From a bacterium (GTDB lineage Bacteria; Patescibacteriota; Andersenbacteria; UBA10190): a stretch of DNA of 64,000 nucleotides. The notes beneath the pieces were generated by a model. That model worked only from the letters and a program-made list of their open reading frames with translations. It was not told the origin of the DNA and searched no databases. The DNA lies in NCBI GenBank assembly GCA_030698495.1, contig JAUYKA010000017.1, forward strand, positions 1,319 through 65,318. The letters are read 5' to 3'. Every line of letters begins with the position of its first letter. The stretch's first letter is position 1. Below, in pieces: positions 43,744 through 44,257 of the stretch. Both the position numbers and the translations under genes were made by a program.

Positions 43744-43825
43744 AAAGTAAAGGTATCGATCTCTTTCACCTCAAATGCGACACCATTTAAAATCAACACC
43801 CGCCGTTTGTTAGGTTTCGTTCCCC

Positions 43826-44125
43826 CACTCCCGTCCGCCCCCCCCTAGATCGCGTGACCGTGTCCTGCTTAATAAAAGCCCTCTCATTTTTTTCGATAAT
43901 TTGACTCTATTTAATCTATTAGCAAATACTCCCGCGGCGGGTGGCGCGGTAGGGGGCGCCCCGCGCCGAATGGAATTCCGAGAGGCTCATTTTGCCAAAG
44001 GCAAAATGAGGAAGCGGAACTGGATATTCGGCGTGGGGGAATCTACCGCGACAGGACCCGCCGGAGGTAAATTTCTGTTAAAAAATGAGAGGGCTCCCCC
44101 CGTCCGCTCCCCTAGATCGCGTAGC
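43826..44125. repeat. Structured non-coding block. 31-nt direct repeats (CCCGTCCGCCCCCCCCTAGATCGCGTG with CCCGTCCGCTCCCCTAGATCGCGTAG) and 17-nt inverted repeats (AGCCCTCTCATTTTTT with AAAAAATGAGAGGGCT) enclose about 180 nt of GC-rich hairpins
   Basis: Seen directly. The internal hairpins are GGCGCGG-TAGGGGGCGCC-CCGCGCC and CTCATTTTGCC-AAAG-GCAAAATGAG. No convincing ORF. Confidence 0.4.
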
Positions 44126-44140
44126 TGAATCTACTAGCCC

Positions 44141-44200
44141 GGAAACTCTATTGCTGTTCTTTCCGGCGGTCGCCGGAAAGTAACAGCTAATAGAGTTTCC
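44141..44200. other. Long near-perfect hairpin GGAAACTCTATTGCTGTTCTTTCCGGCG-GTC-GCCGGAAAGTAACAGCTAATAGAGTTTCC, 60 nt upstream of the atp promoter
   Basis: 28-bp stem with two single-base bulges. Confidence 0.5.
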
Positions 44201-44257
44201 TTTATGCTTGAAGTTATCAGCTACCACATATCGCTTAAATGTCAATTGCCCCTCCTC

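Follow-up and report, generated by a model that had tools for sequence, protein, structure and literature searches.

REPINs and REP elements, which are mobilized by RAYT transposases (IS200-like Y1), are long imperfect hairpins in intergenic DNA. Their copy numbers run from tens to hundreds, and they lack a flanking duplication. MITEs and foldback elements (e.g., QMITE2 of Coxiella, Correia, and ERIC) are likewise intergenic and noncoding, are ~250 bp in length, form a very stable stem-loop, and have flanking direct repeats (PMC10969869). The flanking repeats are usually 2–14 bp long, the inverted repeats are terminal, and the core is AT-rich. Direct repeats of the length described below are left by just one well-documented transposition chemistry, that of the IS1202 subgroup, in which they are 27–28 bp (bioRxiv 10.1101/2022.12.17.520857) and the element has 5′-TGT/TRT termini. 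Two kinds of RNA structure are also relevant: the ~200-nt rods with a large internal loop that typify 6S RNA and other long rod-like noncoding RNAs, and intrinsic terminators, in which a T-rich tail comes after a stem with a GC-rich base.

Here we consider a noncoding block upstream of the atp operon in a genome whose nearest AtpB matches are ≤76% identical and carry the names Andersenbacteria, Parcubacteria, or Saccharimonadales, and which is therefore a CPR/Patescibacteria genome without a close sequenced relative. In the window (the whole 64-kb stretch of DNA analyzed), the block comprises two long hairpins (HP1 and HP2) and two copies of a direct repeat (DR1 and DR2). As in MITEs, it is small and noncoding (~243–269 bp for the segment bounded by the repeats), intergenic, and very stably folded, with stem-loop energies comparable to those of prokaryotic MITE transcripts (PMC10969869), and it has flanking direct repeats (26/24 nt), albeit longer than usual. 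However, the closing inverted repeat is not terminal, but lies 21 nt inside DR1 and 3 nt inside DR2; the core is GC-rich rather than AT-rich, no cognate IS is known, and the block is known in a single copy. Compared with the IS1202 subgroup, the repeats are slightly shorter (24–26 bp), the termini are different, and there is no transposase. Because TGT/TRT termini are lacking and the inverted repeat is nonterminal, we do not file the block as either a MITE or an IS1202 derivative. It also differs from REPINs, given that the window has no Y1 transposase and the block has no repeated REP core. Our best explanation, which we favor with some reservation, is that the block originated by a nonautonomous palindromic DNA insertion, which duplicated ~24 bp of target beside a pre-existing palindrome.

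Layout of the spacer

The spacer is 649 nt in length (43675–44323) and separates an orphan gene on the minus strand, which encodes a 171-aa protein (43159–43674; NCBI MAG protein Q8P73_02690), from the plus-strand ATG of atpZ at 44324. The original prediction had extended the orphan gene to 43743 (i.e., 43159–43743) and had put the spacer at ~570 bp; both values change with the corrected gene start. The orphan gene has a canonical intrinsic terminator (43102–43129, minus strand), with a 10-bp stem followed by TTTAATTT, so ordinary short terminators are also used by this organism. A perfect TATAAT (43725–43720, minus strand), which is likely the −10 element of the orphan gene, lies between the gene and the block, ~45 nt upstream of the ATG on one side and 100 nt from the first repeat on the other. 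At the other end of the spacer is the atp promoter (TTGACA-16-TACTAT, 10/12; 44258–44285, plus strand). Between this promoter and the atpZ ATG, a hairpin (CTCCTC-ATCTC-GAGGAG followed by T6; 44295–44317, plus strand) sequesters the Shine-Dalgarno sequence GAGGAG. The same hairpin and T6 could terminate plus-strand transcripts that arrive from the block.

On the plus strand, the order within the block is DR1 (26 nt, CCCGTCCGCCCCCCCCTAGATCGCGT; 43830–43855), a 21-nt stretch that leads to the HP1 closing stem (43856–43876), HP1 (219 nt; 43877–44095), DR2 (24 nt, CCCGTCCGCTCCCCTAGATCGCGT; 44099–44122), and HP2 (104 nt; 44121–44224), neither hairpin being assigned to a strand. DR2 thus begins 3 nt past HP1, and its last 2 nt are also the first 2 nt of the HP2 outer stem. 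All four of the structural features that had been predicted are present, with coordinates that were off by a few bases at most. The direct repeats are real, but are 24–26 nt in length rather than the 31 nt claimed. Likewise, the region was correctly said to hold no credible open reading frame: ORFs of the block have no match in Pfam, and a search of its six-frame translation against 5.8 billion proteins returned nothing.

Run SRR13727534 yielded two separately assembled Logan contigs that match the window with 100% identity, one up to 43962 and the other from 44037 onward. Given this identity on both sides, the block is not an artifact of one assembler. A RadC-to-Pro_CA_2 stretch is also identical in run SRR26726065. 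The apical 74 nt of HP1 are supported by the MAG assembly alone.

Structure and strand preference of the hairpins

HP1, defined by folding and pairing, is a nested imperfect hairpin. Its closing stem, formed by AGCCCTCTCATTTTTT at 43877–43892 and AAAAAATGAGAGGGCT at 44080–44095, is perfect over 16 bp (an inverted pair of 17 nt had been predicted). Near the base it opens into an AT-rich, asymmetric internal loop (43893–43928 vs. 44067–44079, about 37/13 nt), above which are two inner helices (43929–43952/44043–44066 and 43959–43971/44026–44038) and a perfect 11-bp apical stem (43986–43996/44000–44010). The inner helices and apical stem are the GC-rich internal hairpins that had been reported. 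The sequences CTCATTTT/AAAATGAG recur in the outer and apical stems. HP2 has at its core the near-perfect hairpin noted previously at 44141–44200, which has 27 pairs, a 4-nt loop, and two single-base bulges (both T, on the right arm), with pairing that extends outward to 44121–44224. Two single-base bulges on one arm are the only resemblance to an integron attC site, and that assignment was rejected: neither HP1 nor HP2 has a GTTRRRY/RYYYAAC pair at its base, and no integrase domain was found in the 64 kb.

Both hairpins are far more stable than expected by chance. For HP1, the minimum free energy is −111.2 to −111.9 kcal/mol on the plus strand and −104.6 to −108 kcal/mol on the minus strand (z-scores of −8.5 and −9.2, respectively), and none of 200 shuffled sequences folds as well. 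For HP2, the z-scores are −9.95 (plus) and −10.6 (minus), and for the whole 461 nt they are −8.5 (plus) and −6.4 (minus). Each hairpin has a T-rich tail, on opposite strands: the one after HP1, on the minus strand, reads GGCT-TTTATTAAG and comes from the 43856–43876 stretch (tail TTTTATTAAG), and the one after the HP2 core, on the plus strand, is TTTATGCTT. In this respect HP1 (minus) and HP2 (plus) look like intrinsic terminators, with a GC-rich stem base and then a T-rich tail, but canonical ones have stems 5 to 10 times shorter, and no gene ends at the block.

One reading of these structures, raised originally as an unannotated sRNA gene and in our view possible but unlikely, is that they belong to an orphan gene for a structured noncoding RNA. 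In the plus-strand version, a transcript of ~410–520 nt would start from ~43800, include DR1-HP1-DR2-HP2, and end either at the HP2 T-tail or at 44295–44317; in the minus-strand version, it would pass through HP2 and end at the T-tail of HP1. Each long rod could then serve as an RNase III substrate or as a protein-binding scaffold. Consistent with such a gene are the extreme stability of the folds (z from −8.5 to −10.6), the 65% GC content of the inner rod of HP1 (43929–44066) within spacers of 37–43% GC, a 649-nt spacer that is long for a gene-dense genome, the T-rich tails, and the promoter-like sequence TTCACC-17-TAAAAT (43765–43793, plus strand), a consensus match only, which is back to back with the orphan gene promoter and would read into DR1 and HP1. 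However, promoter-like matches in the region are at chance level (three found vs. 2.3 expected), terminator matches are likewise no better than consensus level, and no minus-strand promoter for the block was found.

The strand signal points both ways. HP1 has a small stability advantage on the plus strand, and mismatches between its arms are more often G·T (three) than A·C (one), which counts in favor of an RNA gene. However, these four are the only wobble-type changes among 20 differences between the arms, the remainder being block loops; G-U pairs are scarce (five among the 76 pairs of plus-strand HP1, four on the minus strand, and none among the 41 of HP2 on either strand), and HP2 is as good on one strand as on the other. 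Neither strand is clearly favored for HP1 or HP2. The few G-U pairs, the near-equal stability on both strands, and the block loops fit a DNA palindrome better than a strand-specific RNA. As a rod of ~200 nt with a large internal loop, HP1 does resemble 6S RNA and similar noncoding RNAs, but its loop is asymmetric (37/13 nt) and near the base, it matches no Rfam model, and it is not conserved.

What strand-specific constraint looks like in this genome can be seen elsewhere in the window. A sliding 150-nt scan identified 11 regions with fold z-scores below −4.5, all of which are long intergenic hairpins (approximately one per 6 kb), and 43951–44250 is among the strongest. The window also contains a structured family with four copies (525–690, 1923–2061, 8472–8621, and 11087–11254), in which G-U pairs are conserved on one strand and 24 of 58 pairs show compensatory change. 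This family serves as a model of real strand-specific constraint, and HP1 and HP2 lack its signature. They are not members of the family: a covariance model built from the four copies (R1) finds these four only, with nothing at 43800–44250 at E-values up to 10.

Searches for related sequences

No Rfam family matches the block, cis-regulatory families included. The whole 64-kb window gave no match at the gathering threshold, and searches at E-values up to 10 with 3 kb and with 541 nt returned just hairpin-shaped miRNA/sRNA noise (15–18 bits, compared with thresholds of 48–98). We found no further copies of HP1 or HP2 in the 64 kb by self-BLAST or Smith-Waterman tiling, and no third copy of the direct repeat on either strand of the window. 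Beyond the window, blastn against phages and plasmids found nothing, as did exact-pattern scans of viral contigs for the apical hairpin and the repeat. Among 185,579 species genomes (not including the source genome), the direct-repeat pattern has three matches, all of them chance occurrences within GC-rich coding sequence of Thermoleophilaceae and Kiritimatiellaeota. The absence of a homolog from every collection searched means that there is no covariation support for an RNA gene, and it counts against that reading, as does the lack of an Rfam match even at E-values up to 10.

Some other assignments were rejected on the basis of the sequence. The block has no DnaA box and no GC-skew switch that would indicate a replication origin. 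It is not a CRISPR or TIGR-type array, as there are just two repeats, 269 bp apart, and no Cas/Tas-like neighbors. The similarity of the HP1 left flank to the atp promoter, considered as a possible degenerate copy, is not significant.

Comparison with relatives

Four relatives have the same atp operon (AtpB 69%–73% identical), but in these there are only 58–190 nt upstream of atpZ, and both the 171-aa gene and the hairpin block are absent from that position. In one of them (L010), a carbonic-anhydrase-like gene (Pro_CA_2) is divergent from and directly adjoins atpZ at a distance of ~130 bp, with a recognizable TTGAC promoter context that is common to the atp promoter of the window. In the window, the same Pro_CA_2 gene and atpZ are separated by the 171-aa gene and the block. 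Together, the short spacers of the relatives and the L010 arrangement indicate that the 171-aa gene plus block constitute ~1.15 kb of lineage-specific extra DNA. It should be noted that the nearest relatives are distant (AtpB identity of 76% or less), so gain here is indistinguishable from loss elsewhere.

This is the comparative alignment that was called for originally, with the statement that a conserved functional RNA would be contradicted if the region were missing or unconserved in close relatives with an intact atp promoter and no transcript covered it. The first half of that statement describes what we find: the block is absent from four relatives in which the atp promoter is intact. 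Its absence from all sampled relatives also weakens the case for an orphan RNA gene.

Evidence for and against an insertion

DR1 and DR2 differ by one mismatch and a CC indel (26 vs. 24 nt; 92% identity), whereas the sequence around the two copies differs. Their local alignment score is 37; the best unrelated score is 26 when both copies are scanned against both strands of the whole window. The hairpins and the direct repeat are far beyond chance, and the repeats lie hard against the hairpin in the manner of target duplications, with DR2 only 3 nt past the closing stem. Also in favor of an insertion are the wealth of long intergenic hairpins in this genome, the precedent of the IS1202 subgroup for long target duplications, and the unrelated neighborhoods in which homologs of the orphan gene lie.

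The mechanism that we favor, a palindromic insertion with target duplication, would have begun with an ancestor in which the carbonic-anhydrase-like gene was divergent beside atpZ at ~130 bp, as in L010. The lineage may then have gained the 171-aa orphan gene, with its own promoter and terminator, plus palindromic sequence. HP1 with its 21-nt left tail (~243 bp, 43856–44098) would be a foldback/MITE-like nonautonomous insert that landed directly beside HP2, a palindrome already in place, and duplicated ~24 bp of target, giving rise to the two direct repeats. The nesting of HP1 may reflect repeated insertion of a palindrome into the loop of another palindrome. Such events would be expected to give the build seen here, in which a terminator-like, AT-rich outer stem encloses a rod of 65% GC and this in turn a small perfect hairpin, and for this step we rely on inference only. 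The block probably lacks a dedicated cellular function. In a transcript, should there be one, the hairpins would be no more than very stable stem-loops, and HP1 (via its minus-strand T-tail) and HP2 (via its plus-strand T-tail) could insulate the two divergent promoters.

Some observations do not fit neatly. The segment bounded by the repeats is asymmetric, with 21 nt to the left of the closing stem but 3 nt to its right; inverted repeats are missing from its termini, where GACCGTG... is not complementary to ...GGGCTCCC; and 24–26 bp is unusually long for a target duplication. Because no second copy was found in the 64 kb, in the phage, plasmid, viral, and genome collections, or among proteins, the multicopy hallmark of a mobile element is unproven. 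The original prediction had suggested, as one option, that the repeats are att-like footprints of an inserted or excised element. An insertion footprint is indeed the best fit, with the block absent from four relatives, but DR1 and DR2 bracket HP1 only and not the whole of the extra DNA, and there is no recombinase or transposase nearby: transposase, integrase, and invertase domains were absent from all large ORFs of the 64-kb window. We looked for direct repeats that bound the whole gene-plus-block insert and found none. A scan for tRNA and tmRNA genes was also negative, so the direct repeat is not an att site at a tRNA end.

The arrangement could instead have resulted from an old tandem duplication of a repeat-plus-hairpin unit, in which case HP1 and HP2 would be diverged paralogs and HP1 would have been enlarged later. 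The distance from repeat to hairpin is similar in the two halves (21 nt for HP1, and 18 nt for HP2 as measured to its core), and both hairpins contain ACTCTATT (at 43904 and 44145) and CGCCGGA (at 44059 and 44171) in the same order. However, similarity beyond the repeat is not significant relative to dinucleotide shuffles (p = 0.08 for the left arms and p = 0.18 for the right), and it would be necessary to explain why only the 24 nt remained nearly identical. We consider this origin improbable.

The places at which the two Logan contigs end, inside HP1, bear on another scenario, in which the inverted repeats of HP1 flank an inverton-like segment with two states. The block lies between two divergent genes, and the 16-bp perfect inverted repeat surrounds 187 bp that include a promoter-like TTGACT-18-AATACT (43901–43930, in the asymmetric loop). 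Furthermore, the contigs stop at near-mirror positions. The left one ends at 43962, whose pairing partner is 44035, just before the single mismatch of a 13-nt inner inverted repeat, and the right one ends at 44037. We regard inversion as highly improbable because the whole segment is palindromic, unlike known invertons, and there is no invertase or other recombinase domain in the 64 kb. A GC-rich hairpin in which read coverage drops out would be just as likely to yield symmetric contig ends, and the right break is 2 nt off the predicted branch point.

The orphan gene and its homologs

The 171-aa family is tiny, with 7–12 members recovered in two exhaustive searches, and scans of metagenomic and viral sequences contributed only one extra locus. 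Homologs occur after PNPase (L001), beside an IS1595-type transposase (L002), beside an IS200-like Y1 transposase of the type linked to REPINs (L014), and before ribosomal protein L9 (L015). Given that these neighborhoods are unrelated, the gene moves between contexts. The protein is basic and has an arginine-rich C-terminal half. Its AlphaFold model (pLDDT 85) starts with a strand-helix-helix, and a search of BFVD gave a weak ribbon-helix-helix match (E-value 0.08, probability 0.97). There was no match in Pfam, PADLOC, or PHROGs, none in the PDB by sequence or fold, and no internal repeat in the protein.

Sequence upstream of the gene is scarcely shared among homologs. The closest (L014) has ~90 nt of proximal upstream sequence in common with the window (67% identity), but the next gene upstream is just 170 nt away and nothing like the block is present, and this region folds no better than shuffled sequence (z = +0.9). 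In the other homologs there is no upstream similarity to the window and the coding sequence alone is shared. L001 has a very stable hairpin ~130 nt upstream (z = −9.9), and L002 has arrays of 23-nt repeats, inverted copies included, both upstream (202–270 and 390–412) and 2 kb downstream (2233–2278). The repeats near the homologs are wholly different in sequence between loci, and are convincingly nonrandom in two of six.

Another option raised originally was that the block forms a long structured 5′ leader, riboswitch-like, for the minus-strand gene. The block is indeed upstream of this gene on the minus strand, and the stable hairpin of L001 provides a partial parallel, but we reject the proposal: the gene has its own perfect TATAAT below the block, and the closest homolog has no block or comparable region. 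In addition, the upstream regions of the homologs share no similarity, Rfam has no match, and the minus-strand T-tail of HP1 would terminate transcription rather than lead into the gene.

The protein might instead act on the block as DNA. The two repeats and the HP2 palindrome would then resemble operators or iterons and might be bound by the basic 171-aa protein, which would regulate its own gene and/or the atp promoter. Repeats that are 92% identical amid differing surroundings suggest constraint on the repeat itself, a hairpin follows each copy by ~20 nt, and 23-nt repeat arrays flank the homolog in L002. The weak BFVD match and the arginine-rich C-terminal half would suit a nucleic-acid-binding role. 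However, the fold match is weak and has no support from the PDB (by fold or sequence), from Pfam, or from an internal repeat; the repeat sequences differ completely between loci, with just two of six convincingly nonrandom; and DR1 and DR2 are 269 bp apart and 150–430 bp from the promoter of the 171-aa gene. We therefore find this reading doubtful.

A broader version would treat the 171-aa gene and the block as one accessory module that travels between CPR genomes. Its components would be a small basic, possibly ribbon-helix-helix-like protein and, as its predicted binding targets (DNA or structured RNA), fast-evolving repeats of ~23–26 nt together with long hairpins. We judge this quite improbable.

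Biological implications

If the block is a palindromic insertion, as we tentatively suggest, it would mainly mark genome plasticity. It would also mean that the spacer before the essential atp operon tolerates >1 kb of foreign, self-pairing DNA, even in a streamlined CPR genome, and that palindromic elements can leave ~24-bp duplications, which hints at an undescribed insertion chemistry. If, on the other hand, the block proves to be an RNA gene or a protein-binding module, it would join the small handful of regulatory elements that have been put forward for these uncultured bacteria, and the accessory-module reading specifically would imply a new protein–nucleic-acid partnership (in partition, replication, defense, or addiction) in ultra-small bacteria.

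The separate four-copy family at 0.5–11.3 kb looks more promising than the block upstream of atp. With approximately one long hairpin per 6 kb, that family included, such structures may matter more for transcript ending and insulation in these organisms.

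Breaks and sequence signals around the atp operon

Both Logan contigs of SRR13727534, which were assembled separately and match the window on either side of the apex of HP1 (the 219-nt imperfect hairpin at 43877-44095), end inside that hairpin. The breaks fall at nearly mirror-image positions (43962 and 44037) and leave the apical 74 nt unassembled in these contigs, a pattern that reflects reduced read coverage over a GC-rich hairpin or else a variant in the population (e.g., an inversion). Across the whole window, there are 29 DnaA-box-like nonamers (TTATCCACA, no more than one mismatch) vs. 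13.3 expected, a count reached in 0 of 100 shuffles, and 25 of them are on the plus strand. None of the 29 lies in the palindromic block upstream of the atp operon.

A further hairpin, CTCCTC-ATCTC-GAGGAG followed by T6, is located downstream from the atp promoter and ahead of the start codon of atpZ (44295-44317); in it, an anti-SD sequence is paired with the GAGGAG ribosome-binding site. This hairpin resembles a terminator, and a role in the operon as a 5′ attenuator or in translational control is possible. The nearby Pro_CA_2 gene, listed as an ORF of 201 aa with a TTG start (42485-43090), is probably shorter than this. The Pfam match and the 144-aa orthologue in a relative with the same atp operon favor a start at the ATG at 42922 (145 aa), which would leave a spacer of 236 nt (37% GC) up to the stop codon of the gene for the 171-aa protein.

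The 171-aa protein family and its surroundings

The orphan 171-aa protein is encoded at 43159-43674 on the minus strand, and its family is also found at loci of other genomes (L001, L002, and L014-L016). The family is very small, with only 7-12 members among 1.8-5.8 billion proteins; it has 51 invariant residues and a C-terminal motif, RTPRGLLPLF. AlphaFold models the protein with confidence (pLDDT 85); a PDB fold search with the model returned no match, and the sole lead on the fold is a weak ribbon-helix-helix match.

The genomic neighborhood differs for each family member. In L002, arrays of a 23-nt repeat (TCGAAGAGTTTACTCTGAGTTTA), including inverted copies, occur at 202-270, 390-412, and 2233-2278 and bracket a module of ∼2 kb in which the homologue of the 171-aa protein is accompanied by two small ORFs. 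A gene for an IS1595-type transposase adjoins the module, and the arrays resemble iterons or the termini of an element. In L001, from another CPR MAG, a branched hairpin of 125 nt (5097-5221; z −9.9), with a 26-nt closing stem that is 92% complementary, lies ∼130 nt upstream of the homologue, and the 1.7 kb downstream from that gene is without called genes.

Structured elements elsewhere in the window

Strong hairpins occur at a density of about one per 6 kb across the window. Long intergenic examples, with fold z of −4.8 to −8.8, are at 16562-16668, 22014-22145, 23621-23694, 24306-24387, 37855-37971, 51055-51175 (after atpC), and 60351-60500. Those at 23621-23694 and 24306-24387 share AAGTAGTATGTAG and flank a cupredoxin-like gene.

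More promising than the palindromic block upstream of the atp operon is a GC-rich (64%-69%) structured family with four copies of 140-170 nt (525-690, 1923-2061, 8472-8621, and 11087-11254). Each has a conserved, two-branched core (..CCGTCTCAAGRCTTGCCGGCC..GGTCYCCGC..GCGGRGCGGCAAG..AGTCGAGCGCCGCCCGCCGCTGGGGCGGGCAAGTGTG..) closed by an outer stem of 24-29 bp, the sequence of which varies from copy to copy while complementarity is kept; compensatory change is seen at 24 of 58 pairs. Conserved G-U pairs single out the plus strand. Rfam gave no match, and a search with a covariance model built from the four copies (R1) found no extra copies in the window or nine related loci; a single exact-pattern match in a viral contig was judged to be chance. 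Housekeeping genes on the minus strand (methyltransferase, ribonucleotide reductase, sigma-70, and YgjP) adjoin the four copies, each of which lies 28-70 nt past the 3′ end of its gene. The family has the appearance of a structured RNA not described before or of an element that targets hairpin loops.
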